Source: Bacilli bacterium (GTDB lineage: Bacteria > Bacillota_I > Bacilli_A > ML615J-28 > CAG-313). Taken from it: 64,000 nucleotides of DNA. A program made the translations under genes and the position numbers. The notes under the pieces are model-generated. The model had not been told where the DNA came from, searched no databases, and was given only the letters and a program-made list of their open reading frames with translations. Below are positions 26,788-43,197 of this stretch, in pieces. The stretch covers positions 69,633-133,632 of the forward strand of contig JAZOLG010000020.1 in the NCBI GenBank assembly GCA_045652765.1. The letters run 5' to 3'. The stretch's first letter is position 1. Each line of letters begins with the position of its first letter.

Positions 26788-29700
26788 ATGAAATTAAGAT
26801 GGCCTAAATTTTTAACAGTTAAAAGAACAATTTTATTTGCATTGTTATTATTTGTAATAATCTTTGCATTAGTTTATTTCTTCGGTGGTTATAAAGCTTC
26901 TGCTTTAAGTAGTGATTTGATGGAATTTAATCCTGATGGATTTAAGCACATTGATCAATATATCAAAGATGAAGAAGCAGATAATCAAGCAGAATTTGAT
27001 AAATTATTAAATGAGTTAACTGTAGCAAATTATGATGAAAAAATTGATGCTGTTATTGCAGCATGTACTACAGTAACTTATTTAAACCAATTAAATGCTA
27101 AACTTTCTGAATTGCAAAAAGCTGATGATGATAATGATGATAAATATCAACACAATCTTGATTCTAATTCATTAATCACAACAGAAGAGTTTGCAAAACA
27201 AACAATGAATGAATTCCGTCCATGTTTAGAAAAATTAGATGCAAATGGAACAGGTTATAAATTAGAATTGAATTACTTTACAACTCAATTTAAAATTATT
27301 CGTTTTGAAAAAGGCGAAAAAGTAAATGAATGGTATTCAAACCCTCAAAATACTGATTACACTGCTAGTGTTGGTTCAACACTTGCTAACCAAAAAAGTC
27401 CATTGATTCTTTATTACTACACACCAAATGGAGCTACTCTTCCATATAGTGCTTTTGAATATTCAATCAATGATAACCAAGGATCAGCGGAGGCTCCTAC
27501 ATACGTTGATCAAACATTTAGTTATGACATAGATCCAACAAATGGAACTCTACAAGTATATTATGAGTTACAATCTAAAGGACATAAGTATTATGACTAT
27601 CCAAAATATTTAACTCCTGAACGTGTTAATGAATTAATTCAACGTAACAAGGATTATGTTGCAGCTGAACTTGCTGCTTTTGATACAAAAAATATGAGTG
27701 AATTACAAGAATATTTTAATGATCATTACGCAGTAAGATATATTAAAAGACCAAATGAAATTGGTTCAAAACGTCAAGGACTTATTGGACCTGAATCATA
27801 TAAATATTTTGTAGAAAAATTTAAATACAATGATTCTGATTACAAAAATGTAAACATTGATAACATTGTTTCACGTTTTAAAAGTATGGTAGATGCTAAT
27901 AAAATTGAAGATGTCAGAAATTTATGTAAAATTATGTTTAGATTAGAATATGAATATACAGATTCTAAACATGAATTTGTTAAAGATGGAAATATCTTAA
28001 AGACTTCAGATGCTTCTGAATTCTTAAAAAACCAATATAAATTGGATGATACATTAAGTGACTCTGCTCATCCATTCCCATTCTATGAAATCGTAGATAA
28101 TTATGATGAAACTATGGGTTACAGATCTAGCCAATTTATTTCTCAAACATTAAAGAAATTCCAATATTCTGAAGAAGATTTAAAAGCTGATCAAGAATTA
28201 TTTGGAGTTGAAATTGTTTCAAATAAACCTTCATTTAAAGTTGGTGTACAATATTCATTAACAGATAAAGGATTTGAAGCAAAAGTTATTAACAACTCAC
28301 TTTCTGAGTCATTACCTGAAAAGTATCCAATCTATAAGATTGAAATACTTCCATATTTCTCAGCAATTAGTGCTGATTATGCTCCTTATCAATATGCCGA
28401 TGGTAAAAAACAAATTGATAAAATTAACACATTAGAATCTAATGGGTATATGGTTATTCCTGATGGTAGCGGTGGTATCATTAATTTAAATAATGGTAAA
28501 TTTGCTTATCAAAAACGTGTATATTCAACTGATTTAGCGTTTGTTGATGAAGTTAAAAAGACTGCTTCTGAAGATGTATTATTACCAATGTTTGGTTTAA
28601 CTTATGACTCTGTAGACTTCTCAAGTGTTGCTCCTGGAAAAGAAGGAGGCTTTAGAGGAAGCAGCGTTATCGCAAGAGCTACTCAAGGTGCTTCTCAAAT
28701 GATTCTAACAGCTGGTGTTAGTGCAGCAAGTGATGCTTATAACAGAATTTGCTTCGCTGCAACATATAGAGAATCACAAACAGTAACAATTGGTACTGGT
28801 TACTATGCTAACCCAGTTACTCAAGTTACTCCAACAAATGTAAAAACTGACTTTACTGTTGAGTATTCACTAATTAATGAACAAGGTTTAACATATTCTG
28901 ATATCGCAAAACGTTATCAAGAAATGTTATATGGTGATGTTTTAGAACAAAATGCTCAAGACAAAACTAATACTCCAGTTCTTAATGCTGAATATTTAGG
29001 TTTATATGACTATAAAACAAACTTCTTAGGTATTGTATATAATGGTCATGATAGTTTAACAACTTATTCACAAGCTATTGACGTAACTAAAAAATTACAA
29101 GAATGGGGCGCTGAAAAGATTAACGTAATGTATCTTGGATGGCAAGATTCTGGTTTAGTTAACGAAACATTTAATGATATGAAGTTTACAAAAGACTTAG
29201 GTAATAAGAAAGAACTTCAATCAATGTTAAATTATTTCAAAGAAAATGATGTAACACTTTATCCAAATGTTAGCTTCCTTGAAGTAAACAAAATAAACGA
29301 ATCATTTGGTAAGATTAGATATGCATCTCGTGACATTTCTAATGAATTTACTGAAAAATATCCATATGATTTAGCAAGTGGTGTTTTTGATAAAAAACAA
29401 CGTGCAATCTATACTATTTCTCCAAAATTCTTCGATGTATTCTCAAGTAATTTAGTGGAAAATTTCAAAAAGAATAATCCTGAACTTGAAAGTATGGCAT
29501 TCGAAAAATTAGGATCAAAAATTGTAGGTGACTACAAGAAAAAGAATGAATTCTTTAGATTCAATTCTGTTGTTGAACAAATTAATGTATTTGAAAAATT
29601 AAATGCTAACAACATTAAAAATTTAACATTAACTGCTCCTTATGAATTTGCAGTTAAATATGCTAATAACATTGTTGAATTACCTTATGAATCAACATTA

Positions 29701-30249
29701 TTAGACATCTTTGATTATTCTATTCCTTTCTATCAATTAGTATTCTCTGGATACCGTGATTATAGTGGTATGAATATTAATGCTAATGACGAAAAAGGAT
29801 TAAATTATCATATTATGAAAATTCTTGAAACTGGTTCAAATATTGAGTTTACATTCAGTTATGACGATTCAAATGAATTAATTCAAACTGATTATAACTA
29901 TTATTACTATACTCATTATTTAGACTGGGCTAAAGAAGTAAGTTCATTATTAACAGTATTAAATAAATTAGAATTACACAAATATTACTTAGCTTCTCAC
30001 GAATGTGTAGCTGGTAATACTTCAGTATTTAAAGTTACTTATAAAGTTAAAGATGAATGCAAAGCACAAGTTAGTGATCCTGAATTCTCAATCTATTTGA
30101 ATTACTCAGATATGAATGTTAATTTAAGTGATACATTAACATACATTGACATCGAAAATAGTGATGCTCAATATAATCCGTTTAAAAATCAAACAACTGG
30201 TGGTATTTTAGATCCATGGAGTTGTGCAACAGATAAGGAGGTAGCTTAA
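26788..30249 (+). CDS. Large N-terminally anchored extracytoplasmic protein, DUF5696-like (possible TIM-barrel glycosidase)
   Basis: 1153 aa with a single N-terminal TM (ILFALLLFVIIFALVYFFGG). Segment KINVMYLGWQDSGLVNETFNDMKF...DVTLYPNVSF looks like a glycosidase barrel strand pattern. The DUF5696 assignment is from memory and unverified. Confidence 0.4.
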   Translation: MKLRWPKFLTVKRTILFALLLFVIIFALVYFFGGYKASALSSDLMEFNPDGFKHIDQYIKDEEADNQAEFDKLLNELTVANYDEKIDAVIAACTTVTYLNQLNAKLSELQKADDDNDDKYQHNLDSNSLITTEEFAKQTMNEFRPCLEKLDANGTGYKLELNYFTTQFKIIRFEKGEKVNEWYSNPQNTDYTASVGSTLANQKSPLILYYYTPNGATLPYSAFEYSINDNQGSAEAPTYVDQTFSYDIDPTNGTLQVYYELQSKGHKYYDYPKYLTPERVNELIQRNKDYVAAELAAFDTKNMSELQEYFNDHYAVRYIKRPNEIGSKRQGLIGPESYKYFVEKFKYNDSDYKNVNIDNIVSRFKSMVDANKIEDVRNLCKIMFRLEYEYTDSKHEFVKDGNILKTSDASEFLKNQYKLDDTLSDSAHPFPFYEIVDNYDETMGYRSSQFISQTLKKFQYSEEDLKADQELFGVEIVSNKPSFKVGVQYSLTDKGFEAKVINNSLSESLPEKYPIYKIEILPYFSAISADYAPYQYADGKKQIDKINTLESNGYMVIPDGSGGIINLNNGKFAYQKRVYSTDLAFVDEVKKTASEDVLLPMFGLTYDSVDFSSVAPGKEGGFRGSSVIARATQGASQMILTAGVSAASDAYNRICFAATYRESQTVTIGTGYYANPVTQVTPTNVKTDFTVEYSLINEQGLTYSDIAKRYQEMLYGDVLEQNAQDKTNTPVLNAEYLGLYDYKTNFLGIVYNGHDSLTTYSQAIDVTKKLQEWGAEKINVMYLGWQDSGLVNETFNDMKFTKDLGNKKELQSMLNYFKENDVTLYPNVSFLEVNKINESFGKIRYASRDISNEFTEKYPYDLASGVFDKKQRAIYTISPKFFDVFSSNLVENFKKNNPELESMAFEKLGSKIVGDYKKKNEFFRFNSVVEQINVFEKLNANNIKNLTLTAPYEFAVKYANNIVELPYESTLLDIFDYSIPFYQLVFSGYRDYSGMNINANDEKGLNYHIMKILETGSNIEFTFSYDDSNELIQTDYNYYYYTHYLDWAKEVSSLLTVLNKLELHKYYLASHECVAGNTSVFKVTYKVKDECKAQVSDPEFSIYLNYSDMNVNLSDTLTYIDIENSDAQYNPFKNQTTGGILDPWSCATDKEVA

Positions 30250-30250
30250 G

Positions 30251-31495
30251 ATGGAAGAAAAAGATCTACTAGAAGAAGTTCAAACAGCTGAATCTACTGA
30301 AAATGAATCTGTTCATAAATTAATGGATATTAACAAAGATGAAAAAGAAGTAAAAGGATTTGCGAAAATCAAAGAAAAAGTTTCTCGCGGTTTTAGAAAT
30401 TTATTAAATAAAATTTCAAGTTTCTTAAACAGTAATAAATTTGGACGTGGATTAAAGAAAGTGTTCAAATATATTGGTTTATTCTTCTACTACTTAGCTT
30501 ATCCATTCGTATTATTTAAACGTAAATGTTATGATAAATGGACTAGTAAAGGTCAAAAATTATTCGTAGCTATTTTATTCTTAACACCTGTAGTTCTTGG
30601 GTTCTTAATTTTCTATTTGTACCCAATGATAATGTCATTAATTTATTCATTTAGTGGAGTTGTTTCTGACAATGGTGTTCATGTTTCTTTTGGACAATTT
30701 ATTCATCCTGAAACAAAAATTGAAACAAAAGATTTCTTTGGAAATTATAAGTATGCATTTACTGAATTAATGTTCCCTACTCGTGGAGCTGACTTCGGTA
30801 GTGATGAAAAAATCAGTTTTATTCAAGCATTGACTGAAACTGGTTTCCAAACTATTTTAGATGCAATCGTTATTACAATCTTTAGTTTATTAATTGCTGT
30901 TATGTTAAATGGTAACTTTAAAGGAAGAGCAGTTGCTAGAGCAATTTTCTTCTTACCAGTTATCTTAAACTCTGAAGCTATCACAGCTGCAACAGATTCA
31001 ACAGCAGCTATTGACTCTGTACTTAACTCGATTGGTCAAAATGCCCTCAGTCAAATCTTTGACATGAAAGCATTCTTTACTCAAATTGGTATACCTGCTA
31101 AGATTGTTACATTTTTAAGTGATATTACTTCGACTATCTATAGTACAATTTCTTATGCCGGTGTTCAAATCTTAATCTTCTTAGCAGCCATTCAATCTGT
31201 TCCTGGTCATTTATATGAAGCAGCAAAAATTGAAGGTGCTACTAAGTATGAATCATTCTGGAAAATTACTTTACCAATGGTTTCTCCAATGATTTTAACA
31301 GTTGTAGTATATACAATCGTTGACTCATTCTTAAGAAGTGACTTAAGTTACTACTTGAAATCATTATGTCAAAACTACAAGTATGGTCTACATGCGGCTG
31401 TATCTTGGTGTTATATCTTATTATCATTATTGATTTTAGGTATCGCATTATTATTCTTGAAGAAGGTGGTGTTCTATCATGATGAACGAAAATAA
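30251..31495 (+). CDS. CUT1-type sugar ABC transporter permease (second pair) with about 100-aa N-terminal extension
   Basis: EAA loop YEAAKIEGATKYESFWKITLPMVSP. The acidic/basic N-terminal extension has an extra TM. Confidence 0.8.
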   Translation: MEEKDLLEEVQTAESTENESVHKLMDINKDEKEVKGFAKIKEKVSRGFRNLLNKISSFLNSNKFGRGLKKVFKYIGLFFYYLAYPFVLFKRKCYDKWTSKGQKLFVAILFLTPVVLGFLIFYLYPMIMSLIYSFSGVVSDNGVHVSFGQFIHPETKIETKDFFGNYKYAFTELMFPTRGADFGSDEKISFIQALTETGFQTILDAIVITIFSLLIAVMLNGNFKGRAVARAIFFLPVILNSEAITAATDSTAAIDSVLNSIGQNALSQIFDMKAFFTQIGIPAKIVTFLSDITSTIYSTISYAGVQILIFLAAIQSVPGHLYEAAKIEGATKYESFWKITLPMVSPMILTVVVYTIVDSFLRSDLSYYLKSLCQNYKYGLHAAVSWCYILLSLLILGIALLFLKKVVFYHDERK

Positions 31496-32528
31496 AGTAC
31501 CATCAAAAGCAAAGTTAAAATACGAACAAATTCTTAGGGATTTAAGAAATCCGGTTAAGAAAGCCGTAAGAACACAAAAAGTTGCTGATAAACTATCATC
31601 ATTATTCAGAGCAATAATTCTTCTTGGGTTATCATTCGTTATTATTTTCCCAATTTTCCAACAAATTTCATTAGCGTTTAGACACCCTGCGGATATTCAA
31701 AATAAACTTGTTATTTGGATTCCTGAAACATGGTCTGTTTTAAACTTTAAAATTGCTTATAGAATACTTGATTATTTGAACGCATTGTTCAATAATATTC
31801 GTGTATCATTAATCGTTATGATCGGACAAGTTGCATGTTCAGTACTTGCTGGTTATGCACTTGCAAGATTAAAATTTAAAGGAAGTAATGTAATTTTCTT
31901 AGTTTTACTTGCTACATTCATTATTCCACCTCAAGCCGTTTCTGTATCAAGAATGTTATATTTCTCTGACTTTGATATTCTTGGTATTATTGGTTTATTC
32001 AATGGTGGAAAAGGACTTGTTTTATCTGGTTCAAGATTTATTCTATATATTATGGCATTTACTGGACAAGGTATTAACAACGCAATCTTCATTTTCTTAT
32101 TCAGACAATTCTTTAGAGGCGTTCCAGTTGAACTTGAAGAATCTGCAGAAATTGATGGAGCTGGTGTATTTAGAACATTCTGGAGTATCATGCTTCCAAA
32201 TGCTCGTGGTGTAATGGTTACAGTTATGTTATTCTCATTCGTATGGCAATGGAATGATGTATACTATACAAGTTTATTAGAACTTTCTACTAATGATTTC
32301 CCATTACTTACAATGAAACTTTTAAATACAGCTGAAAGACTTCCTAACTTTATGAAGATCTATAAATTAGACCAATTAGTTGACCCGGAAATCCGTGGTA
32401 ACTCGATGTTTATTTCGCTTATTGCAAATACTGCTGGTTTCTTGATGATGCTTCCACTTTTAGTTGGTTATCTATTCGTACAAAAATTATTTGTTGAAGG
32501 TATTGAAAGAACTGGTATTGTAGGTTAA
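31479..32528 (+). CDS. CUT1-type carbohydrate ABC transporter permease (second pair)
   Basis: EAA loop ESAEIDGAGVFRTFWSIMLPNARG. Overlaps the upstream gene by 17 nt. Confidence 0.8.
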   Translation: MMNENKVPSKAKLKYEQILRDLRNPVKKAVRTQKVADKLSSLFRAIILLGLSFVIIFPIFQQISLAFRHPADIQNKLVIWIPETWSVLNFKIAYRILDYLNALFNNIRVSLIVMIGQVACSVLAGYALARLKFKGSNVIFLVLLATFIIPPQAVSVSRMLYFSDFDILGIIGLFNGGKGLVLSGSRFILYIMAFTGQGINNAIFIFLFRQFFRGVPVELEESAEIDGAGVFRTFWSIMLPNARGVMVTVMLFSFVWQWNDVYYTSLLELSTNDFPLLTMKLLNTAERLPNFMKIYKLDQLVDPEIRGNSMFISLIANTAGFLMMLPLLVGYLFVQKLFVEGIERTGIVG

Positions 32529-32557: not shown

Positions 32558-33247
32558 ATGAAAAGCAAAATATTGAATAGTAAAGCATATCAAGTATTTG
32601 ATTACATATGTCGTTTAGTTATTCTGAATTTATTGCTGGTCATAATATCATTCTCGATTTTTCTTATTATGATCAACATATTTCCGAATATGAAAAATAT
32701 TTATCGAATACTTTGTTTAATACCAACAGCACTAAATTTCTTGCCATGTGTTGTGGCTATTGCTGATGTTATTAAAGGATATGAAATAGAAAAAAATACA
32801 GGTATTTTTAAAGAATTTTTTACAGGTTTTAAAAAATATTTTTCTAAAGCATCATTACTAAGTGTGCTTTTAATTGGATGTATATTATTGATTACAAATA
32901 GTGTAACTTTCTTTAGTACAATGCAATCAACAGGTGTTATATACACGATTGGCTTTGGACTATCATTATCATTAATTGTTGTTTTGATAATAGGATTTAT
33001 TCATCTACCACTAGTAATGATTTATTTCGATGATTTGAAGTTGGTTCATTATATTAAACTAAGTTTAATATTCGGATTTAAAGATCTTGGATTAACTTTA
33101 TTATTAACATTATTTGTTATTGGGACTATTGTCCTTTGTTACTTAATGAGTTTTTATTTAGTAGTTTTAGCATTTAGCTTAGCAATATATTTAATAATTA
33201 AATTAACAAAAAATAAATATTTTAAAATTTCTGAAAGGAATAAATAA
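32558..33247 (+). CDS. YesL/DUF624 family membrane protein
   Basis: 229 aa. N-terminus YQVFDYICRLVILNLLLVIISFSIF and six TMs are typical of DUF624 proteins found beside sugar ABC systems. Confidence 0.65.
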   Translation: MKSKILNSKAYQVFDYICRLVILNLLLVIISFSIFLIMINIFPNMKNIYRILCLIPTALNFLPCVVAIADVIKGYEIEKNTGIFKEFFTGFKKYFSKASLLSVLLIGCILLITNSVTFFSTMQSTGVIYTIGFGLSLSLIVVLIIGFIHLPLVMIYFDDLKLVHYIKLSLIFGFKDLGLTLLLTLFVIGTIVLCYLMSFYLVVLAFSLAIYLIIKLTKNKYFKISERNK

Positions 33248-33248: not shown

Positions 33249-35261
33249 ATGAAAAAGAGTTTATTATGTAAAAGACTAGTTGCGGTTATTATCGGACTAT
33301 TTCTAGTATGTACTCTAACTTTTAAAATTAACTCTGCAAATGTAACTGATAGTGTTGCACTTGTTGGCGATATTAAAACTGAAAGATTATGGGACGGCAT
33401 TGATATGGAAAGAATGCACGTTCAATCAAAACTTCATGGTGTTCCAACAAATGGTAATAGTTATGATTGGGATGCAGTAGCAATTTCTGCTGAAAACAAT
33501 CCAGCTATTAGAATTGTTACTTGGGGTTTAACTGCTGCTGATGGTGTTGGCTATAAAGCCGGAACAACTATGGATATCGCAAAAAATTATGAAAAAGAAA
33601 ATCCTGGATATACTGTTATTGCAGCTATCAACGGAGATTTCTTTGCTAACGCTCCATTTACTACTTCTGCAGGTGTTAGCAATAGTAAAGGAACTTTTGA
33701 ACCAATTAATACATGGGTTGCAGACGGTGGTAAAGTATATAAACCAGTTACAATTGCGCACCCTCATCATAACGTTATTGGTTTATTTGAAGACAGATCA
33801 TATCTATATCACTTAGGTACTTGGTATGATCAATTAGGAAATGTAAGTTTTGCAGATGGTGCATATGCTGGAACATCTGCTCAATATGGACAAAATTTAC
33901 CAACATTTACTGAACAAGCAGTTTTCTCAGTAGGAGATTATCAAACTACTGCATGGTCATATAAACAAAAAGCTTCTCTAAATGAAGAAGCGGTTAATAT
34001 TTTCTGGGAAGGTCAATACCTTAATATTGATGTTACAGGATATACAGTATGGAAAGCAAAAACTGACCGTTTAAGTATTCCAACAGATGGATTCCAAACA
34101 AAATATTTTGTTGAACAATCATTAGCTGGATGGCAATATAATTTAGAATATACTAAATATTATATGGAAGGTCGTTTTACTGAAGTTCAAAACTTAACAT
34201 CTATTAGTGAAGTTGAAGATGGTTGGTGTTATATTGTAACAAAAGATCAAGAAGTAATTAGCAGATTAGGTCGTGCTGTTGAATTTACAGCTCAATATGA
34301 AATGACAGGCGTTTGGGAAAATGTTAATTCAGCAATCGGTACAGTTTTACCTATTATTATTCAAGGTAAGAGAACTGCGTATGTTGGTGTTAACGAACAT
34401 TATTTAAATACTTTCAAACCTAAAACAGTTTTAGCATTTAAAGAAGACGGAACATGTTTATTCTTCTTTATGGGTCCTGGACCACTTGGTGGTTCTAGTG
34501 AAGGTGGACCTTCATCAATTGAACTTGCTGAATTATTAGAAAGACTAGGCGTAGTTGATGCCTTCTGTTTAGATGGCGGCGGATCTTCATCAATTATTTG
34601 TAGAAGAGGTGATGACTTCGTTGAATTAAATACTCCTACAGATGGTCAAACAAGATCTATTGGTAATGCCGTATTAATGGTTGTAGAAAACAGCAATCTT
34701 GAAGTATTAGAAGCACATGCTACAAAAGCTACATTTGGTCAATCAAAACCAATGGTAGAAAGTGAATTAAAAGAAGCTGTTCTTCACTTTAATGGTAAAG
34801 ATTATGTATATAATGGCGAAGAAATTTTAATTGAAGGGTTAAAACCTAATACAACTTATGAATATTATTTTGATTATTCATTTGAAAGAGATGGAAAATT
34901 ATTACATTCAAAAACAAATATTCAAACATTCACAACTGGAAACGATGATCCTATACATGTTCATGAATTTGTAGATGGTGTTTGTGAATGTGGAGAAAAA
35001 GATCCAAACTGGAAAGAACCAGTTCATGAACATGAATTTGTAGATGGTGTTTGCGAATGCGGAGAAAAAGATCCAAACTGGAAAGAACCAGTTCATGAAC
35101 ACGTATTTGTAGATGGCGTTTGTGAATGTGGAGAAAAAGAACAAAATGAAGATGAAAAACCATCAAATGGTGGTGGAGGAATGAACTGTGCTATGGGATT
35201 TGTTTCAGTTCTACCTTTAATTGGTGCAGGAGCCTTATTAATAATTAAAAAACGCAAATAA
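33249..35261 (+). CDS. Surface-exposed phosphodiester glycosidase (NAGPA/DUF2233) family protein with 3 HxHEF..CxCGE repeats and Cys-tail
   Basis: Signal peptide. VIAAINGDFFAN and AFCLDGGGSSSII...TRSIGNAVLMV match the NAGPA-domain hallmarks as I recall them. Tail GGGGMNCAMGFVSVLPLIGAGALLIIKKRK. Confidence 0.7.
   Translation: MKKSLLCKRLVAVIIGLFLVCTLTFKINSANVTDSVALVGDIKTERLWDGIDMERMHVQSKLHGVPTNGNSYDWDAVAISAENNPAIRIVTWGLTAADGVGYKAGTTMDIAKNYEKENPGYTVIAAINGDFFANAPFTTSAGVSNSKGTFEPINTWVADGGKVYKPVTIAHPHHNVIGLFEDRSYLYHLGTWYDQLGNVSFADGAYAGTSAQYGQNLPTFTEQAVFSVGDYQTTAWSYKQKASLNEEAVNIFWEGQYLNIDVTGYTVWKAKTDRLSIPTDGFQTKYFVEQSLAGWQYNLEYTKYYMEGRFTEVQNLTSISEVEDGWCYIVTKDQEVISRLGRAVEFTAQYEMTGVWENVNSAIGTVLPIIIQGKRTAYVGVNEHYLNTFKPKTVLAFKEDGTCLFFFMGPGPLGGSSEGGPSSIELAELLERLGVVDAFCLDGGGSSSIICRRGDDFVELNTPTDGQTRSIGNAVLMVVENSNLEVLEAHATKATFGQSKPMVESELKEAVLHFNGKDYVYNGEEILIEGLKPNTTYEYYFDYSFERDGKLLHSKTNIQTFTTGNDDPIHVHEFVDGVCECGEKDPNWKEPVHEHEFVDGVCECGEKDPNWKEPVHEHVFVDGVCECGEKEQNEDEKPSNGGGGMNCAMGFVSVLPLIGAGALLIIKKRK
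34956..35150 (+). repeat. In-frame tandem repeat, 3 x 69 bp (23 aa, H-x-H-E/V-F-V-D-G-V-C-E-C-G-E-K)
   Basis: Units start at 34956, 35025 and 35094. The first two are nearly identical at the nucleotide level and the third diverges after GEKE. Confidence 0.9.
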
Positions 35262-35276
35262 AAATAAGAGGTCAAC

Positions 35277-37256
35277 ATGAAAATAAAAGTTTTTAAAAAT
35301 TTGTTGATGCTTATTGTAAGCGTGAGCTTAGTTACTGTTTTATCAATAAACGTTAATGCTGCAAAACTAACTGAAAATGTAGAACTTGTTGGCGATATAC
35401 ATTCTCAACAAATATGGGATGGTGTAATGCTTGAGCGTATGCATATTAAAGCAAAAAGAGTTGGATCAACTAGTGCAGATCCAAGTATTTATGACTGGGA
35501 TACAGTAGCAATTAGTGCTGAGAATAATCCTGCTATTCGTATTGTAACTTGGGGTATGGATACCCAATTAAATGGTAAAGATTACAAAGCTGGTACAACT
35601 TTACAAATTGCACAAAACTATGAAGCAACTCATCCAGGATATACAGTTATTGCTGGAGTAAATGGAGACTTTTTTGCCAATCGTGGTTTTACAACGAGCG
35701 GAGGTAAGGTTTATTCATCGGCTACAAATGAACCTCTTAATACATGGATTGCTGATGGAGATGCGTTTAAATCTGTAGTAATGGCTAATCCTGACCATGT
35801 GGTTCTAGGCTTTAGTGAAGACCGTAGTTATCAATATCACATCGGTACAATCTATGGTAAAAATTATGAAATTATCTATAATGATAATATATATGATGGA
35901 ACTGGCGCAGTTAGAGGTGAAAATGTTCCAACATTTACAGATACACCAATTTTTAATATAAATGATACAAAAAAAGAAGCTAACGTTTATTTTCAAACGA
36001 AAGAAGTAAAAGACGATGCAGTTAATATCTTCTGGGAAGGTAACTATGATAATATAGATGTATCTGGTTATACTGTTTGGAAAGGTTATGTTGATAGATT
36101 TAGCATTCCACAAGATGGATTTAATAAAACATTTATTGGTAGACATCCAAGTGATTCTAGTCAACATGCAATGACTTATGGATATGATTATACGCATTAT
36201 TATTTGCGTGGTCGACTATTAGAAGAAGTTGAAATAGATACTATTTCAACTGTGGATGAAAACTATTTTTATGTTGTAACTAAGGATGATGCAGTAACTA
36301 GCCAATTTGTTAAAGCTGCAACAATTAAAGTACAATATGAATTAACAGGTAATTGGGCCGGTGTAACATCTACAATGGGCGTATTATTTCCATTCTTAAT
36401 TAATGGTAAGAGAACAGCTTATGTTTCAGTTAAAGGCGATCAACATAATAATAATTATTTAAATGACAATAAACCTAAACCTGCAATTGGATTCAAAGCA
36501 GATGGTACTTGTGTGTTCTTCTTTATGGGACCAGGACCACTTAGCAAATCTAGTCAAGGTGGACCTTCTTCAATTGAAATGGTTGAAGTAATGGAAAAAA
36601 TGGGAATTGTTGATGCATTCTGCTTAGATGGCGGCGGATCGGCTTCAATTGTTTATCGTAACGATAAAGGGAAACTTGAAGAATTAAATTCACCGACTGA
36701 TGGGCAAACAAGAAGTGTTGCAAATGCAATATTAATGGTAGTTGAAGATAGTAATTTAGAAATGATTGAAACTTTATCAACAAGTGCAACATTTGGACAA
36801 ACAAAACCTATGGTTGATAGTGAATTATTATCTGCTACTTTACATATTGATGGCAAAACATATGAATTAAAGAATGAAAATATAACTGTAACAGGACTAA
36901 AACCTAATACTGAATATGAATACTATTTTGAATATACTTATAAAGATAATCTTCTTGAAAGAACAACAAAAACTAATTTGATGAAGTTTGTAACAAGTTC
37001 CTTAGATGAGCATGAACATGAATTTATTGATGGAAAATGTGAATGTGGAGAACTTGATCCAAATTATGAACCTCCACTTGATGAACACGAACATGAATTT
37101 ATAAATGGTGAATGTTCATGCGGTGAAAAAGAATCTACTACTAATGAACCTGATAAAAACAATAATGGTACATCAGGATGTAATATCGGCAGTTTGGCAA
37201 CTATTCTGCCTATGATTGCAGCATTTAGTTTGATACTAATAAGAAAAAGAAAATAA
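35277..37256 (+). CDS. Surface-exposed phosphodiester glycosidase (NAGPA/DUF2233) family protein, paralog 2, with 2 repeats and Cys-tail
   Basis: Collinear with the upstream paralog (VIAGVNGDFFAN, AFCLDGGGSASIV, TRSVANAILMV). Signal peptide. Tail GTSGCNIGSLATILPMIAAFSLILIRKRK. Confidence 0.7.
   Translation: MKIKVFKNLLMLIVSVSLVTVLSINVNAAKLTENVELVGDIHSQQIWDGVMLERMHIKAKRVGSTSADPSIYDWDTVAISAENNPAIRIVTWGMDTQLNGKDYKAGTTLQIAQNYEATHPGYTVIAGVNGDFFANRGFTTSGGKVYSSATNEPLNTWIADGDAFKSVVMANPDHVVLGFSEDRSYQYHIGTIYGKNYEIIYNDNIYDGTGAVRGENVPTFTDTPIFNINDTKKEANVYFQTKEVKDDAVNIFWEGNYDNIDVSGYTVWKGYVDRFSIPQDGFNKTFIGRHPSDSSQHAMTYGYDYTHYYLRGRLLEEVEIDTISTVDENYFYVVTKDDAVTSQFVKAATIKVQYELTGNWAGVTSTMGVLFPFLINGKRTAYVSVKGDQHNNNYLNDNKPKPAIGFKADGTCVFFFMGPGPLSKSSQGGPSSIEMVEVMEKMGIVDAFCLDGGGSASIVYRNDKGKLEELNSPTDGQTRSVANAILMVVEDSNLEMIETLSTSATFGQTKPMVDSELLSATLHIDGKTYELKNENITVTGLKPNTEYEYYFEYTYKDNLLERTTKTNLMKFVTSSLDEHEHEFIDGKCECGELDPNYEPPLDEHEHEFINGECSCGEKESTTNEPDKNNNGTSGCNIGSLATILPMIAAFSLILIRKRK
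37005..37131 (+). repeat. In-frame tandem repeat, 2 x 75 bp (DEHEHEFIxGxCxCGE)
   Basis: Units start at 37005 and 37080 (DEHEHEFIDGKCECGELDPNYEPPL / DEHEHEFINGECSCGEKE). Confidence 0.85.
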
Positions 37257-37263: not shown

Positions 37264-38838
37264 ATGAGTGATATAATGATTGACATTAATAAATTGACTT
37301 TAAAAGAAAAAATTGGACAAATGATAGGACTAGCATTTAGCGGTACAAGTTATAGTGAAGAACTTAGAATGCAAGTAGAAGAAATTGGTGCAGGTCTTAT
37401 TATTTACTTTAAAGATAATTGCAATAATCCAAAACAAATATTTGATCTAAACAAAACAATTTATAAGAATAGTAAAATTCCACCATTTATTGCATTAGAC
37501 CAAGAAGGTGGCATGGTCGCGCGTGTTACTGAAGGTGTCGTTCAGTCTCCTGGCGCAATGGCAATTAGTGCTTGTCAAAATCCTAAGTATGCTTATAATT
37601 TAGCATATAATATGGGTAAAGATTTAAGAAAGTTAGGTTTTAACTTTAATTTTGCACCTGTTGGTGATATAAATAACAATGCATTAAATCCAGTTATAAA
37701 TGTTAGAAGTTATTCAGAAAATCCAGAAGTAGTTTGCGAATATGTAAAAGAAGCTGTTCTTGGTTATCAAGATGCAGGTCTCATGACTTCAATTAAACAT
37801 TTTCCAGGACATGGTGATACCGCTGTAGATTCGCATTTAGGTTTACCAAAAGTTGATTTTGATAAAGAACGCCTATATAATATGGAACTTAAACCATTTA
37901 TTATGGCTAAAGAAGAAAACTTACCAGGTATTATGGCATCACATGTCATGTTTACTAAGTTTGACTCTGAATTTCCAACAACTTTGTCTAAGAAAATTAT
38001 TAATGGTTTATTAAGAGATGAAATCGGTTATAATGGACTTGTTGTTACAGATTCATTAACAATGAAAGCTGTTTTTAATAATTATAGTTTAGAAGAAATC
38101 GTATATAACTCAATGAATTCTGGTTGTGACATTTTATTGTTATGTGGAGCACGTGATATTAAAATGCAAAAAGAATTTGCGGATATCGCACTTCGTTTAG
38201 CAGAATGTGGCAAAATACCAATGGAAACAATCGATGCTGCTGTTACAAGAATTCTTATATATAAGGAAATGTTTACAGCAGGTCAAATGAATGACTGTTT
38301 TGAAGATGTAAAAGACGAAATTAACAACATTAAAGAAGTAGAATTTTCACAAAAAGTTAGTGAAGAAAGTATAACAGAAATTATAAATAGTAATCATTTA
38401 TATCCTGTTTGTAAGGATGAAAAAATTCTTGTTGTTTTCCCATTAATTAAAGTTGTCACTTTAGTTGAAGATGAAAACAATAACTTGATGTCACTTTGTG
38501 ATTTTATGGATATTCCAACTGATCGATTATATATGTCAATCGATCCAACAGAAGATGAACAAAACAAACTTTTAGAAATTGTAGATAATTATGATAAGAT
38601 AATTTATTGCAGTTATAATGCATGTTTCAATGAGACACAAAGTGAATTAATAAATAAAATTGATCAAAATAAATTAATTGTTTGTGCAATTAGAACTCCA
38701 TATGATTTAAGAGTTTTACCAAATGTACAAGCATATTTATGTAGCTATGAAGCAACACCACTTAGTCTTGCTTCTTTAGCAAAGGTATTAACTGGAAAGA
38801 TTAAACCAAGAGGTATTCTTCCGGTAACTATTAAATAG
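37264..38838 (+). CDS. nagZ: Glycoside hydrolase family 3 beta-N-acetylglucosaminidase, cytoplasmic
   Basis: IALDQEGGMVARV, KHFPGHGDTAVDSH and VVTDSLTMKA motifs of GH3 NagZ/YbbD-type enzymes. No signal peptide. 524 aa, two-domain form. Confidence 0.8.
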   Translation: MSDIMIDINKLTLKEKIGQMIGLAFSGTSYSEELRMQVEEIGAGLIIYFKDNCNNPKQIFDLNKTIYKNSKIPPFIALDQEGGMVARVTEGVVQSPGAMAISACQNPKYAYNLAYNMGKDLRKLGFNFNFAPVGDINNNALNPVINVRSYSENPEVVCEYVKEAVLGYQDAGLMTSIKHFPGHGDTAVDSHLGLPKVDFDKERLYNMELKPFIMAKEENLPGIMASHVMFTKFDSEFPTTLSKKIINGLLRDEIGYNGLVVTDSLTMKAVFNNYSLEEIVYNSMNSGCDILLLCGARDIKMQKEFADIALRLAECGKIPMETIDAAVTRILIYKEMFTAGQMNDCFEDVKDEINNIKEVEFSQKVSEESITEIINSNHLYPVCKDEKILVVFPLIKVVTLVEDENNNLMSLCDFMDIPTDRLYMSIDPTEDEQNKLLEIVDNYDKIIYCSYNACFNETQSELINKIDQNKLIVCAIRTPYDLRVLPNVQAYLCSYEATPLSLASLAKVLTGKIKPRGILPVTIK

Positions 38839-38848: not shown

Positions 38849-39574
38849 ATGAAAGTAATAGTTGTAAAAAACTACGATGAAATGAGTAAAAAAGCAGCTG
38901 AGATTTTTATTGAACAATTAAAAAATAAACCAAATTCAATCTTAGGGCTTGCTACTGGAGGTAGCCCAGTAGGTACTTACAAAGAACTAATTAAAGCATA
39001 TAATGATGGTCAAATTTCATTTAAAGATGTTCAAACTTACAACTTAGATGAATACTGTGGAATTGATATTAACCATCCACAAAGCTATTATTATTTCATG
39101 CATGATAATCTATTTAACCATGTAGATATCAAAGAAGAAAATGTACATATTCCAAGTGCAAGAGGGGAAAATATTGCTAAGCAATGTGATGATTATAACA
39201 AAGCATTACATAGCGTTGAAATTGATATTCAACTACTTGGTATTGGTTCAAATGGTCATATTGCATTCAATGAACCAGGAACATCATTTGAACAAGAAAC
39301 ATTCATTGTTGAGTTAACTGATAAAACTAGACAAGATAATAAACGTTTCTTCAATAGTATCGATGAAGTTCCAACACATGCTATGACAATGGGTATTAAA
39401 AACATTATGCAAGCTAAATCAATCGTTATGTTAATTAGTGGCGCAAGCAAAAAAGAAACTGTTGAAAAACTTTTAAAAGGTCCAATTACAGAAAGTTTCC
39501 CAGCTAGTATCTTACATAATCACCAAGATGTAACAGTAATTATTGATGAAGATGCTTATCAAAATATGAAATAA
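38849..39574 (+). CDS. nagB: Glucosamine-6-phosphate deaminase
   Basis: LGLATGGSPVGTYKEL, NLDEY and GIGSNGHIAFNEPG motifs. 241 aa. Confidence 0.92.
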   Translation: MKVIVVKNYDEMSKKAAEIFIEQLKNKPNSILGLATGGSPVGTYKELIKAYNDGQISFKDVQTYNLDEYCGIDINHPQSYYYFMHDNLFNHVDIKEENVHIPSARGENIAKQCDDYNKALHSVEIDIQLLGIGSNGHIAFNEPGTSFEQETFIVELTDKTRQDNKRFFNSIDEVPTHAMTMGIKNIMQAKSIVMLISGASKKETVEKLLKGPITESFPASILHNHQDVTVIIDEDAYQNMK

Positions 39575-39768: not shown

Positions 39769-42700
39769 ATGAAAAAAGTTTTTGCTTGCTTAAGTGCTTT
39801 AACACTTATGTTAGTAGCGTTTGGTGTTGCAATGAAACCTGCTACTGTTTCAGCTGCTGGTGTTGCTGATGGTAAATTCATTGTTGACCCAACTCTTGAA
39901 GAGGGAGATATCCCAATGTATATAATGAATAGTATTTATACTACATTCCCTACTCTTTATGATAATGATGCTCAAGCTGACCCAGATCATTCAACTGGTC
40001 GTTTGTTCTACTGGAATGAAGTTAAATTAATTATTCCTCAATTTAGTGCTGAAGGTCCTACTGGACAAAGATATACTGTATACTCACAAGGTGCTTATGA
40101 TGAAACATTAGAATCTGCTGCAGGTACTAAAATTTATCTTTGGACATTAGATGAAAACGGTAACCCTGTTACTTCTACAAAAACTCGTAGTGGAAACCCT
40201 GACTACACAAGTTTATATGGTCCACAATTTGGTGACGTATCACTTTCTGGTATCCGTTACAATGTAACTGGTCAAGAAGTAATTATCAACGACCTTCATA
40301 ATGAAAAAGGTATTACTAATGGTGACGGTGGTACTGACCCATTCTTCATTATTTTCAATGGTGAAGGTAAAGCTGTTCGTGGTCATAACCATGGTAACTA
40401 TGTTGATGCTGCAAATATTGAAGCTTATGGATACACTCCATTATTAGGTTATAAAGATGGTCAAATCGTTGTAATCGAAGACGTAGCTGGTGCTGCTGAT
40501 GTTAATGGTAACTCTGCTGCTGAAGCTGATTTAGACGTTAAGAAAGTTACAGTTGATGATTTAGACAATCCATTATTAGACCCTGTTACTGGTGAACAAT
40601 TAACAGACGATGAAGGAAATCCTCTTTACAATCAAAAAGAAGAAGATGATCCAACTGGTGCTAAACAAATTTTAACTGGTAAACGTTATATTTGGCAATG
40701 GTATTCTGAAGAAGAATTTGCTAACGTTAAAGTTAACACTGTTCCTTACATGGCTGAAGGTTGGTTAGCTGATCGTTGGGATTATGCATACCCAGATCAA
40801 AATGGTGGTTATGTATGTATCGCTATTACTTCATCTTTAGGTAACAATGCTAAAATCTCTGCTGAAGAATCAGCAATCCACAATGCATCTGTAGACGCAT
40901 TAGTAGCTGCTGGTGAAGAAGCTCCTGCTAAGATTGAAGAAACTGAAACTCCAAATGAAGATGGTACTGTAACAGTTACTTATGCTGCTTACCGTCGTCC
41001 TATCGTTATCAGTGTTGTAATCCCTGTTGATGGTATTATGTATCGTTTCGGTTACTTAGATTACACTGGTAAACCAGCTGTTCCTCTATACATGGAAAAA
41101 TTCAACCCATTATGGGAACAAGCTATGTTATATGGTCGTAACCCTGAATATCAAGCTTACGCTCGTACATATAACTTCTCTGGTCAAGGTTTAGTTGAAA
41201 CTAATGCTGTTGTTAATGGTGAATCATTTATCGTTAGAAACGAAAATGGTAAATTAGTTGTTGAAGTTAAAGCTGGTGCTACTATCGATGTATCTGAATT
41301 AATCGAAATTTCTGGTATGTTAGGTGGTTACGCAACTGCTGGTAAACCTGCTAAAGAAGCTGGTTCTAACGTTGCTGCTGTTTTAACTTATAAAAATGCT
41401 GACGTTTCTGAATTAAGTTACGTTTTAGACATTGATGGACAACACATCATGTGGGCTGAAAAGTTCAAATATGAAAGTGCTGCTCAAGCTGCTGCTGAAT
41501 TCAAAGTTGCTATGGAAGCTGCATTCGGTGGTGCATTCTCTAACTGGTCTGGTAATGCTAACATCTTCAAACTATTCACAGAATCTGATGAATGGGATTG
41601 GGTATTAGATTATTGGACAGCTGTAAATGCTAATGAATATGAAGGCAAGAAAAATGCTGATATGTTCCAAGCATTAAAGAATGGCGATACATCTATCGAT
41701 CCATACTTTATCGCTGTTGAAGCTAACTCATTTGCTAAATTAACTGAATCTTCAGTTTATGCAAGTTCATTAAAATCTGCTAACTATGGTAACGCTGATG
41801 TTCAAGAAGCTATCTGGGACTTCATGCCTGCACCAGATCCATACAAATTTGAATCATTCGATTTATTCGTTGAAGAATTTATTAAAGATTATGGAACATG
41901 GGCTGCTGAATTCTGTGCTGCTAATGGTAAAACATTCGTTACATTAGTTGACGGTGTTCCTACATTCTCTGGTGATGGTAAACCTATCAACAAAACTACA
42001 TGGTCAGGTGCTATGGAAAACGTTGTAGGTAATGCTAACTGGAAATACACTACATTCTTCGAAGATGAAAGATTCGCTGAAAAATGGGGTTGGTTCATTG
42101 ATTTCTTCAATGAACAAATCACTTCTACTCCAAAAGCTGACGGTACTGCATATGCTTACACAATCGATAATAAATATGCATGGCGTCAAGCTTTACAAGC
42201 TTACTTCACAGCTGAATATTGGGGTTCATGGCCATATTCTCCAGACTTCTCTGGTAGATCAGAAACTCCTTACTGGGTTGGTATTAATGAAGTATGTCCA
42301 ACTTGGGCTGAAGCTCAATTCGTTTTAGGTGAAGCTTACGATGTTCATGACAGAATTCCTCTAGCTCTTGAAGTTACTAACAAAGCTACTGGATTTGTTG
42401 ATACATTAGCTATGGAATTTGTAATCGTTGAAGATTACACTCCATTATTAAAAGTTGACACTGCTGCTTTAGAAGCAATGCAAAGTGAAATCTATGGTGG
42501 TGCTACATCAATCGATTTATCAAAAGCTCTTCTTGCTTATGATGGATACTATGATGCAAGATTAGATAACGTTTATGGTCATAACATTTCTAGACACATT
42601 GAATGGGATTTACCAGAAGGATTTGATCCTGCTCAATTAACAGCTGGTCAATGGGTTATCAAAGCTCGTATCGAATCTCAAGTAAATGGTGCTAACAAAT

Positions 42701-43197
42701 CTGCTGAAGCTCAATTCACAGTTTATGTACCAGATAATACAGCTCCTGTATTTAAAACTTTAAATAACGGTGTTATTTATGTACCTGTTGGTACTCCTAT
42801 CACAGCTGAAATGGTATTACAATTTGCTTATGACAACGTTGATGGTGATTACTTAAATAACTGTCAAGTATACCATAACTGGTTCTCAGTTAAAACTGAT
42901 TATGATCCATTAATGGCTGCTGTATATGATGAATATGACGCTGAAATTACTGTTGCTGACTCTAACGGTATGAAATCAACTGAAAAAGTTACAATTATCG
43001 TAACTGGTACTTATGTTGATTTAGAAGGTATTGAATTCCCTGAATTCCCTACTCCAGAACAACCTGGTCAAAATAATGGAACTGATGGTGGTGAAAACAA
43101 CGGTGGTGAACAAGCTGGTTGTGTAAGCTTTGCTTATGTTTCAAGCTTCATTGCTGCTGCTGGTTTAGCATTATTAGTTTTCAAAAAAAGACACTAA
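39769..43197 (+). CDS. 1142-aa surface protein of unknown function with Ig-like C-terminal domains and Cys-tail
   Basis: Signal peptide (cleavage near VSAAG). No catalytic motif recognised. The C-terminal region has DUF5011/Ig-like pattern (VPDNTAPVF...DNVDGDY...ITVADSNGMKSTEKVTIIV). Tail GGEQAGCVSFAYVSSFIAAAGLALLVFKKRH. Strong bias to GCT/GGT/GTT/ACT codons. Confidence 0.6.
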   Translation: MKKVFACLSALTLMLVAFGVAMKPATVSAAGVADGKFIVDPTLEEGDIPMYIMNSIYTTFPTLYDNDAQADPDHSTGRLFYWNEVKLIIPQFSAEGPTGQRYTVYSQGAYDETLESAAGTKIYLWTLDENGNPVTSTKTRSGNPDYTSLYGPQFGDVSLSGIRYNVTGQEVIINDLHNEKGITNGDGGTDPFFIIFNGEGKAVRGHNHGNYVDAANIEAYGYTPLLGYKDGQIVVIEDVAGAADVNGNSAAEADLDVKKVTVDDLDNPLLDPVTGEQLTDDEGNPLYNQKEEDDPTGAKQILTGKRYIWQWYSEEEFANVKVNTVPYMAEGWLADRWDYAYPDQNGGYVCIAITSSLGNNAKISAEESAIHNASVDALVAAGEEAPAKIEETETPNEDGTVTVTYAAYRRPIVISVVIPVDGIMYRFGYLDYTGKPAVPLYMEKFNPLWEQAMLYGRNPEYQAYARTYNFSGQGLVETNAVVNGESFIVRNENGKLVVEVKAGATIDVSELIEISGMLGGYATAGKPAKEAGSNVAAVLTYKNADVSELSYVLDIDGQHIMWAEKFKYESAAQAAAEFKVAMEAAFGGAFSNWSGNANIFKLFTESDEWDWVLDYWTAVNANEYEGKKNADMFQALKNGDTSIDPYFIAVEANSFAKLTESSVYASSLKSANYGNADVQEAIWDFMPAPDPYKFESFDLFVEEFIKDYGTWAAEFCAANGKTFVTLVDGVPTFSGDGKPINKTTWSGAMENVVGNANWKYTTFFEDERFAEKWGWFIDFFNEQITSTPKADGTAYAYTIDNKYAWRQALQAYFTAEYWGSWPYSPDFSGRSETPYWVGINEVCPTWAEAQFVLGEAYDVHDRIPLALEVTNKATGFVDTLAMEFVIVEDYTPLLKVDTAALEAMQSEIYGGATSIDLSKALLAYDGYYDARLDNVYGHNISRHIEWDLPEGFDPAQLTAGQWVIKARIESQVNGANKSAEAQFTVYVPDNTAPVFKTLNNGVIYVPVGTPITAEMVLQFAYDNVDGDYLNNCQVYHNWFSVKTDYDPLMAAVYDEYDAEITVADSNGMKSTEKVTIIVTGTYVDLEGIEFPEFPTPEQPGQNNGTDGGENNGGEQAGCVSFAYVSSFIAAAGLALLVFKKRH

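Follow-up and report, generated by a model that had tools for sequence, protein, structure and literature searches.

A tandem pair of NAGPA-type surface proteins

This analysis concerns two adjacent genes for proteins of the NAGPA/DUF2233 (phosphodiester glycosidase) family and their possible part in the scavenging of amino sugars and foreign cell-wall material. They lie in a stretch of 64,000 nucleotides (the window) of contig JAZOLG010000020.1 from a Bacilli bacterium (assembly GCA_045652765.1). Both are complete open reading frames (ORFs) on the plus strand, paralogue 1 at 33249..35261 (670 aa) and paralogue 2 at 35277..37256 (659 aa), and their products are 50% identical over the full length (BLASTP, 649 bits). 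At the N terminus each has a hydrophobic, signal-like stretch with an Ala-X-Ala-like site behind it (INSA/N and VNA/A, respectively). A previous reading of the DNA, made from the letters alone (the sequence-only reading), had described two paralogous exported proteins here; its ORFs are exact, signal peptides are predicted for both, and the PF09992 (NAGPA) assignment that it put up for checking is borne out by 63.5 bits (E 3.7e-17) for paralogue 1 and 69.8 bits (E 4.1e-19) for paralogue 2, the gathering cut-off being 25 bits. It had also ascribed INGDFF and CLDGGGS motifs to both proteins. CLDGGGS is indeed common to the two (residues 440-446 and 449-455), as is DGQTRS (465-470 and 475-480), but INGDFF occurs in paralogue 1 only (residues 127-132; nucleotides 33627-33644) and paralogue 2 has VNGDFF (128-133). 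No NCBIfam model matched either paralogue.

Of the PF09992 profile only positions 44/59-167 are aligned, which make up its C-terminal two-thirds. About 215 residues upstream is the NGDFF strand, and the N-terminal part of the profile is placed upstream of an insertion; therefore, the NAGPA domain is split by a beta-rich insertion of about 150 residues. In paralogue 1 the signal (1-30) is followed by the N-terminal half of the domain (~31-190), the insertion (~191-344), the C-terminal half (~345-480), an FN3-like domain (~484-562), three Cys/His repeats (~570-640), and a transmembrane anchor (648-666) that ends in KKRK. Paralogue 2 is laid out in the same way, with two Cys/His repeats, the anchor, and then RKRK. 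From this topology both paralogues are predicted to be type-I, surface-tethered enzymes and not freely secreted ones.

The Cys/His unit, HEHEF[VI]DGxCxCGExDPN, is found three times in paralogue 1 (34956-35168), twice in paralogue 2 (37011-37127), and once in GHL10b, a surface hydrolase of the same window (~14950-15010). In paralogue 1 a 69-bp tandem repeat (34962..35140, plus strand; 2.6 copies, 93% matches, Tandem Repeats Finder score 323) codes for the stalk repeats HEHEFVDGVCECGEKDPNWKEPV, a unit of 23 residues. The unit has no Pfam match and stands directly before the membrane anchor; by analogy with the EGF-like stalk of human NAGPA, it may form a metal- or disulfide-stabilised stalk. In both NAGPAs the units are followed by a Gly-rich stretch, a Cys, the transmembrane helix and the basic tail. 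Five surface proteins of the window end alike (GHL10a, 11855-11974; GHL10b, 14995-15114; the NAGPAs, 35142-35261 and 37137-37256; and a 1142-aa protein, 43078-43197), with a Gly run, Cys, (P/A/N)-M/I-G, a hydrophobic helix of about 20 residues, and then KKRK, RKKR or KKRH. The same GGGC...KRRK tail is carried by the relatives at loci L010-L012. The common tail looks like a dedicated C-terminal sorting or anchoring signal; a comparison with the NCBIfam sorting-domain models gave nothing significant (best E 0.04-0.11).

A structure model of paralogue 1, built with AlphaFold2 (AF2) on 17 homologues, has a mean predicted local distance difference test (pLDDT) score of 74.8. In a Foldseek search of the PDB its top 15 matches are all DUF2233/NAGPA structures (E 4e-14 to 2e-5; TM-score on target at most 0.65), among them 5h3k, 6ozd and 3ohg and the vertebrate 6pku, 6pki and 6u11. 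FN3-type domains rank next, on residues ~484-562. An alignment of 17 diverse subfamily members, with identity down to 21%, leaves N128-G-D-F131, D442-G-G-G-S446, N461, D465, R469 and N473 invariant. The DGGGS loop (D442-S446 in paralogue 1, D451-S455 in paralogue 2) is kept in all 17 and in 19 further proteins of the loci described below.

For human NAGPA, a 2026 study assigned sugar-phosphate binding to the D286-GGGS-290 loop and stabilisation of the leaving phosphate to R316; it reports that substitution of D286 or R316 kills activity, that the N-acetyl group is read by E226/T227, and that the phosphate is contacted by T260 (PMC13474241). Arg469 of paralogue 1 lines up with an Arg conserved in 3ohg and 6ozd, both bacterial structures, and lies 27 residues from the Asp of DGGGS, compared with 30 in the human enzyme; the hidden Markov model (HMM) alignment to the vertebrate chains ends before this Arg, and we infer its equivalence to R316. 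Human T260 aligns to a Ser of the conserved GPGPLxxSS segment in the profile alignment to 6pku, in which identity is below 15%. The strict conservation of DGGGS, the Arg and NGDFF, although identity falls to 21-25%, points to purifying selection on the catalytic site, and catalysis on a sugar-1-phosphate diester is likely retained in both paralogues.

A different view of the same proteins would be that they are not phosphodiester glycosidases in practice and serve as binding modules, or as hydrolases of another specificity, with the insertion and the FN3-like domain giving the real function, for example, adhesion to prey or wall fragments. This would suit the facts that about half of the Pfam profile aligns, that an insertion of about 150 aa splits the domain, and that several 'a' copies in other loci are without the exact NGDF motif; BACOVA_00430, the only bacterial member assayed so far, reportedly lacks uncovering activity. 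We consider it very unlikely, since both paralogues and the subfamily hold on to DGGGS, the conserved Arg and NGDFF at such low overall identity.

Conserved gene order around fast-evolving NAGPAs

The NAGPA genes are embedded in a tight series that starts with a DUF624 (YesL-like) gene for a six-transmembrane protein (32558..33247) and ends with those for a NagZ-like GH3 beta-N-acetylhexosaminidase (37264..38838; PF00933 E 1.5e-77; NF003740 188 bits), cytoplasmic as judged from the missing signal peptide, and the glucosamine-6-phosphate deaminase NagB (38849..39574; TIGR00502 298 bits, cut-off 236.9), the last gene of the predicted operon. The gaps DUF624-NAGPA1-NAGPA2-GH3-NagB measure 1, 15, 7 and 10 nt. 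A word-index search returned 47 NAGPA relatives, the closest with 72-85% identity and from metagenome assemblies, and one 43% match labelled "Bacilli bacterium". The gene order that recurs among them is NHL, Yip1, DUF5696, two permeases, DUF624, NAGPA, GH3, NagB, a protein of about 1100 aa (1100-aa protein), GNAT, lipoprotein, DUF624, NamZ, and in the relatives with this order NAGPA is only 43-47% identical. In a second scan, limited to one genome per species, in which no NAGPA was closer than 30% identity, the module appeared in four more records: "Bacillales bacterium UBA1427" (L010) and the metagenome-assembled genomes (MAGs) of an Acholeplasmataceae member (L011), an uncultured Bacilli member (L012) and an Erysipelotrichaceae member (L030). 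In these four, NAGPA identity is 25-30%, compared with 64-74% for GH3 and 63-73% for NagB; over all six loci with the module (L001, L004, L010, L011, L012 and L030) the ranges are 25-46% for NAGPA and 64-80% for GH3. Within the module NAGPA evolves fastest and is duplicated most often, and DUF624 is its constant neighbour in all syntenic loci.

Two NAGPA genes between DUF624 and GH3 are also present in L010, L011 and L012. In a neighbour-joining tree, the pairs of L010-L012, the window pair and the arrays of L067 and L006 arise from separate duplications; on that tree the pair in the window is specific to its lineage but one case of a duplication that recurs. The idea that the pair is unique to the source genome was rejected, with independent pairs or arrays present in L010/L011, L012, L067, L006, L008 and L091. 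Arrays of two to four paralogues with the long architecture, made up of more distant members, were observed in L006 (7968-16068), L008 (1035-6758) and L091 (95-4743), by genes for cardiolipin synthase and a tRNA (U5) methyltransferase and with no gene of cell-wall catabolism close by. A profile search gave 16,771 NAGPA-domain representatives at E<=1e-3, of which the 394 at E<=1e-30 have the long architecture, and the subfamily amounts to about 400 clusters at 50% identity. A tblastn search of 50,697 phage records, with the catalytic region as query, for homologues that might have hinted at a wall-polymer depolymerase role gave no match.

The partnership with peptidoglycan catabolism is also found in rearranged form. 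In an Acholeplasmataceae locus (L026) the order is DUF5696, two permeases, DUF624, NamZ, GH3, a BadF kinase, MurQ, a 217-aa ORF and NAGPA, which places NAGPA one short ORF downstream of MurQ in a cluster without MupG. Directly after MurQ and NAGPA, EtfB, EtfA and a FAD-linked oxidase are encoded (L026 11315-14723); this could be an electron-bifurcating-type D-lactate dehydrogenase set acting on the D-lactate that MurQ releases. In another Acholeplasmataceae locus (L067) there is a row of AnmK, GHL10, a 1369-aa GHL10, a PBP4B-like protein, NAGPA, a Big_2 protein, NAGPA, and a 1244-aa protein with Big_2 and Amidase_2 (N-acetylmuramic acid (MurNAc)-L-Ala amidase) domains. Taken from gene order only, this row is suggestive of a division of labour in which the amidase takes the peptides, the NAGPAs the phosphodiester-linked polymers, and the DigH-like (GHL10) enzymes the bare glycan. 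In Paludibacter (L068) NAGPA again lies near a GHL10 gene. The linkage is seen in at least three different gene orders in Acholeplasmataceae-like Bacilli, and the link of this NAGPA subfamily with peptidoglycan catabolism, for which the sequence-only reading had only the one locus, is real: it is kept in the syntenic module where NAGPA itself has fallen to 25-30% identity, and in the reshuffled L026 and L067.

The host belongs to an uncultured low-GC Bacilli lineage related to Acholeplasmataceae and Erysipelotrichaceae, probably near the wall-less Acholeplasmataceae. Acholeplasma has no cell wall. As the relatives labelled Acholeplasmataceae include the cultured, wall-less Acholeplasma granularum, an exogenous substrate is more likely than the bacterium's own wall.

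The surrounding region and the supply of MurNAc-6-phosphate

The window has about 30% G+C and contains one long plus-strand gene run, from 1827 to 53674; its 47 ORFs of at least 150 aa were scanned with Pfam, NCBIfam and for topology. Some 50 kb of it form an amino-sugar and peptidoglycan scavenging region with two ATP-binding cassette (ABC) importers. At its start are genes for a MurC-like ligase, a LacI regulator, tyrosyl-tRNA synthetase, a PLP-dependent enzyme and a hexapeptide-repeat transferase. The ligase (1827-3029, 400 aa), beside the LacI regulator, is shorter than a typical MurC and scores 244 bits with TIGR01082, below the cut-off of 335; it could be a muropeptide or peptide-recycling ligase and not the biosynthetic MurC. 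A second block encodes a PBP4B-like protein, a double GNAT protein, a PIG-L deacetylase, GHL10a, an M19 dipeptidase (12090-12959), GHL10b and a cytoplasmic GHL10. The first of these (6817-7956) has a beta-lactamase fold and resembles E. coli PBP4B most closely (146 bits, under the cut-off); it has no signal peptide and its homologue in L067 sits between GHL10 and NAGPA genes, which suggests a cytoplasmic peptidase acting on imported stem peptides. The three GHL10 (DigH-like) glycan hydrolases (9626..16389; PF02638 E 1.7e-38 to 1.9e-59) comprise two surface-anchored copies (9626-11974 and 12961-15114) and the cytoplasmic one (15118-16389). Compared with E. coli DigH they show 32% identity over ~400 residues, with E 4e-73 for the cytoplasmic copy and 3e-60 for GHL10b.

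From 16549 to 39574 the genes are tightly packed, with every gap at most 29 nt. This run opens with genes for a cytoplasmic GH20 and a solute-binding protein of 1140 aa, which are followed by two ABC permeases, an NHL-repeat protein of the surface and a Yip1 membrane protein (16549..26775); it continues with a DUF5696 protein and two further ABC permeases (26788..32528; PF18952 E 4e-117; BPD_transp_1), which belong to the conserved upstream part of the module, and leads into DUF624 and the NAGPAs. The binding proteins are unusually large, that of the window (18407-21829) with 1140 aa and that of A. granularum (L027 16628-19498) with 956 aa; both have an N-terminal extension of about 650 residues ahead of SBP_bac_1, with a weak CBM35 match in the A. 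granularum protein, and may capture polymeric substrate at the surface. DUF5696 (26788-30249, 1153 aa), which has an N-terminal anchor, accompanies the NAGPA genes more constantly than any other partner; a literature search for it returned no paper. Its AF2 model is poor (pLDDT 57.9, and 30-50 in the DUF region), with an alternating beta/alpha pattern at ~730-950, and the best Foldseek matches are GH129, GH101 and GH13 alpha-glycosidases at TM-scores of at most 0.24, a weak lead. Judged from this model, it is possibly an unrecognised glycoside hydrolase family. After NagB and a 194-nt gap follows a conserved downstream unit (39769..45861) of the 1142-aa surface-anchored protein, which has no known domain, a double GNAT protein and a 537-aa lipoprotein. 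PDB sequence searches with the 1142-aa protein, DUF5696 and the lipoprotein gave no match.

The predicted extracellular proteins are only the NAGPAs, two GHL10s, the NHL protein, the 1142-aa protein, DUF5696, the binding protein and two lipoproteins, and the NAGPAs and both surface GHL10 enzymes have in common a signal peptide and a C-terminal anchor. No signal peptide is found in GH3, GH20, NamZ, MupG, both kinases, MurQ or NagB. The picture is that of a scavenging system in which wall material is cut at the surface, oligosaccharides enter by ABC import, and degradation is finished in the cytoplasm. Outside this region, a T-box leader (58739-58931, minus strand; 106 bits) lies upstream of the tryptophanyl-tRNA synthetase gene, with a GH5 cellulase-family gene (58967-60343, minus strand) next to it.

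The MurNAc catabolic unit proper (45982..53674, plus strand), whose enzymes are all without signal peptide, is separated from the preceding genes by a terminator-like hairpin at 45875..45910 (16-bp stem and T run, from a consensus scan only) and closed by a second hairpin at 53682-53705. It encodes, in order, DUF624 (45982-46659), the exo-muramidase NamZ (46628-47782), a MupG-like protein (47791-48837), a MurK-like BadF-type kinase (48839-49774), AnmK (49756-50919; NF007148 416.3 bits, cut-off 387), MurQ (50929-51834; TIGR00274 equivalog 350.6 bits, cut-off 302), an alpha/beta hydrolase (51834-52568) and a lipoprotein (52607-53674). The MupG-like protein matches PF19200 (E 4.7e-57) and PF05913 (E 2e-26), with 2p0o as its best solved relative (E 2.6e-38), and no NCBIfam model; the DUF871 family has paralogues of presumed other specificity (PMC6262408). 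The kinase matches 8zo3, an 'N-acetylmuramic acid/N-acetylglucosamine kinase', as its best PDB relative (E 2.5e-12, residues 4-303), a match from which the sugar specificity of the window kinase is not readable.

The sequence-only reading had placed MupG and MurQ in the same locus as the NAGPAs, and both are present; they begin 10.5 kb downstream of paralogue 2, beyond the hairpin and two larger intergenic gaps, in a separate predicted operon. From this spacing, the NAGPA genes and MupG/MurQ are probably separate transcription units of the same region. Its observation that a MurNAc phosphotransferase system (PTS) is missing is confirmed for the 64-kb window, in which no PTS domain was detected in any of the 47 ORFs. 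The corollary that nothing in the locus makes MurNAc-6-phosphate does not stand: AnmK and the MurK-like kinase, encoded between MupG and MurQ, were overlooked. Since both are there, MurQ needs no exotic source of phosphate, and the notion that a missing PTS leaves it without substrate is ruled out. A transporter with a kinase is a known PTS-independent alternative to MurP, for example, in Tannerella with its MurK (PMC10465942).

It is the pairing of a cytoplasmic NamZ with an adjoining MupG homologue, with no PTS in the window, that known pathways do not explain, as they leave the need for a 6-phospho-muramidase unaccounted for. Three possibilities can be named: a kinase phosphorylates MurNAc-N-acetylglucosamine (MurNAc-GlcNAc), the DUF871 protein has another specificity, or the imported fragments bear MurNAc-6-phosphate beforehand. 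The last is what the sequence-only reading proposes. The NAGPAs would cut the GlcNAc-1-P-6-MurNAc linkage, the MurNAc-6-phosphate stubs would be imported within glycan fragments, and MupG and then MurQ would use them; extended to the subfamily, NAGPA would be the missing de-polymerising step of peptidoglycan scavenging, reversing the LCP-made GlcNAc-1-phosphate bond to MurNAc O6 and feeding a PTS-independent MupG-MurQ path. The bond, a GlcNAc-alpha-1-phosphate diester, fits the C1-O cleavage of NAGPA chemistry. The two cytoplasmic glycosidases look redundant unless 6-phosphorylated terminal MurNAc is imported or a kinase acts on disaccharides, and NAGPA stands one short ORF from MurQ in L026 and between the amidase and the DigH-like hydrolases in L067. 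Yet the two kinases suffice for MurNAc-6-phosphate, the very locus that joins NAGPA to MurQ (L026) has no MupG, in the window NAGPA and MupG are in different predicted operons, and orthology of the DUF871 protein to S. aureus MupG is not established. Furthermore, the linkage GlcNAc is not terminal, the fast evolution and duplication of NAGPA suit variable substrates better than one universal linkage, and we know of no precedent for CUT1-type ABC import of phosphorylated muropeptides. The complete sequence of steps agrees with all the observations and would account neatly for the NamZ and MupG pair; weakened by the kinases, the split into operons and L026, it is, for the window and for the subfamily alike, a plausible but rather doubtful proposal.

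Proposed role and comparison with known systems

The reading preferred here, to which a probability of roughly 0.5 is given, is that the pair are surface phosphodiester glycosidases attacking N-acetylhexosamine (HexNAc)-1-phosphate diesters in foreign Gram-positive wall polymers, in linkage units and/or sugar-phosphate backbones. What is observed comprises the domain with its fold and motifs, the predicted topology, and a gene order that is conserved; the substrate and every reaction step are inferred. A conserved system for scavenging amino sugars and cell walls would have the NAGPAs as its outward-facing part. In foreign wall glycopolymers they would act on HexNAc-alpha-1-phosphate diesters and break the C1-O glycosidic bond, the candidate bonds being those of the linkage units that join teichoic acids or other secondary polymers to MurNAc O6, and/or sugar-1-phosphate bonds within the polymers. 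GlcNAc-bearing products would pass to the adjacent ABC importer and then to the cytoplasmic GH3, GH20 and NagB, and the stripped glycan strands would be exposed to the DigH-like GHL10 hydrolases, while AnmK and the MurK-like kinase, working on sugars that have been imported, would be the main suppliers of MurNAc-6-phosphate for MurQ. The rapid divergence and repeated duplication of the NAGPAs fit a variable substrate (the polymer side of the bond) better than one invariant structure. In Bacillota, NAGPA domains are fused to TelC, NlpC/P60 and cell-wall-binding domains, for which conflict roles were suggested (PMC12419801), and these fusions are an independent argument that the family acts on walls. 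A teichoic-acid linkage hydrolase of the NAGPA family, or a NAGPA locus of the present type, was not found in the literature.

Several observations weigh against this proposal. The literature search found no bacterial NAGPA-family protein with an experimentally defined substrate, and the chemistry is extrapolated from the animal enzyme. That enzyme acts on terminal GlcNAc, and the GlcNAc of the linkage unit carries the polymer on O3 or O4. Human E226/T227 align to Tyr-Val in a non-conserved, variable loop with a 5-residue indel between the window paralogues (again in the profile alignment to 6pku, below 15% identity, where the loop alignment is unreliable); with these positions not demonstrably conserved, neither the identity of the sugar nor the group across the phosphate is readable from sequence. 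A teichoic-acid backbone enzyme of the GlpQ or PhoD type is absent from the window. Among the species-representative genomes, about 13 of some 20 full-length matches have no module gene within 10 kb, and roughly a third have one. The NAGPA locus of A. granularum (L027), in the order GntR/UTRA regulator, 309-aa protein, NAGPA, GH20, Ig-like lipoprotein with a weak GH85_C match, DUF624, binding protein and permease, has no MurNAc genes nearby, and in L006-L009 distant members stand in arrays of three to four paralogues next to genes for cardiolipin synthase and tRNA methyltransferase, where wall-catabolic genes are absent.

The A. granularum locus could be taken to mean that GlcNAc is harvested from phosphoglycans other than those of walls, that is, from terminal GlcNAc-1-phosphate caps or sugar-1-phosphate decorations of host, protozoal, fungal or dietary glycans, to feed GH3, GH20 and NagB, the nearness to MurNAc genes reflecting a general amino-sugar regulon. 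The canonical enzyme attacks terminal GlcNAc in exo fashion, no MurNAc-specific enzyme is encoded in the window operon to which the NAGPAs belong, and GlcNAc catabolism with an ABC importer is the sole partner common to all linked loci, MurNAc and peptidoglycan genes being present in most of them, not all. Such a harvest is nevertheless unlikely in view of the repeated and rearranged linkage to MurQ, NamZ, AnmK, GHL10 and MurNAc-L-Ala amidase; in addition, sialidase, fucosidase, mannosidase and other host-glycan enzymes are absent from the window, and GlcNAc-1-phosphate caps are rare and transient. The arrays of L006-L009, together with the distant member in L090 that adjoins DNA polymerase III alpha, invite the thought of a self-directed role beside housekeeping genes, in trimming or remodelling the cell's own surface glycoconjugates (lipoglycans, capsule or exopolysaccharide built on sugar-1-phosphate intermediates), and a membrane tether does keep the proteins near their own surface. 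In the window and its syntenic relatives, however, all neighbours are catabolic or importers, and no glycosyltransferase, flippase or polymerase was found nearby, which makes this explanation highly improbable.

Taken as an attack on foreign wall polymers, the function is plausible from the sequences; the kind of enzyme (NAGPA/DUF2233) is known and the conserved catabolic context is new. Bacterial DUF2233/NAGPA proteins number in the thousands, and the present locus with its rearranged relatives gives the family its first consistent functional context, the degradation of foreign walls and the uptake of amino sugars. The 50-kb region is a rare polysaccharide-utilisation-like system for peptidoglycan in a monoderm. 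If the NAGPAs strip phosphodiester-linked polymers, they would be reagents for the gentle, bond-specific release of teichoic acids, rhamnans or arabinogalactan, the digestion of decorated Gram-positive walls by scavengers of gut and rumen would be accounted for, and a new step would enter the maps of peptidoglycan recycling. If MurNAc-6-phosphate stubs are left as well, an enzyme would for the first time be seen to undo wall-polymer attachment with a catabolisable phosphosugar as product, and a bacterial DUF2233 protein would have its first physiological substrate.

The animal uncovering enzyme (NAGPA, EC 3.1.4.45; 6pku, 6pki, 6u11) has the same fold (Foldseek E 1e-6, TM-score on target 0.53-0.61), the invariant DGGGS loop with a conserved, presumably equivalent Arg ~27-30 residues downstream, and the type-I layout of catalytic domain, Cys-rich stalk and transmembrane helix (PMC13474241). 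The window proteins differ from it in that identity is below 15% and the catalytic domain is split by the insertion of ~150 aa; no counterpart of the furin-activated propeptide is evident, FN3-like and 23-aa Cys/His repeats stand in place of the EGF-like domains, E226/T227 are not demonstrably conserved, and the context is catabolic and not glycoprotein sorting. The best matches in both sequence and structure are the bacterial DUF2233 structures BACOVA_00430 (3ohg; profile E 2.7e-21), BPSS2145 (6ozd; Foldseek E 4e-12) and Slr0280 (5h3k; Foldseek E 4e-14). All three proteins are exported, but they are without the insertion, FN3-like domain, Cys/His repeats and C-terminal anchor, and none is known from a peptidoglycan-catabolic locus.

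In function, the closest analogue is the S. pneumoniae enzyme WhyD. This GlpQ-type phosphodiesterase is anchored in the membrane and detaches wall teichoic acid from purified sacculi (PMC9208761); polymer release is also the outcome proposed for the window NAGPAs. With GlpQ, foreign teichoic acid is scavenged as a nutrient. These GDPD enzymes have an unrelated fold, cleave P-O and not C1-O, are Ca2+-dependent, and serve autolysin control or phosphate scavenging with no link to MurNAc catabolism.

Known routes of MurNAc salvage are MurP-MupG-MurQ in S. aureus, NamZ/NagZ/AmiE-MurP-MurQ in B. subtilis, transporter, MurK and MurQ in Tannerella and Clostridium, and the AnmK route of Gram-negative bacteria; a NAGPA-type enzyme is in none of them. 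The downstream operon of the window combines NamZ, MupG-like, MurK-like, AnmK and MurQ and follows the PTS-independent kinase logic already known (PMC10465942). Its MupG has no PTS partner in the window, whereas that of S. aureus is partnered by MurP, which makes MurNAc-6P-GlcNAc. Another difference is that all glycosidases of the route are cytoplasmic here, so oligosaccharides must enter whole via the ABC systems. Finally, E. coli DigH (YddW), to which the three GHL10 proteins are related, is specific for peptide-free glycan strands (PMC12288456), which provides a rationale for stripping enzymes upstream of it. DigH is a periplasmic cell-division enzyme, while its relatives in the window, two of them anchored to the surface of a monoderm and one cytoplasmic, stand in a nutritional context.

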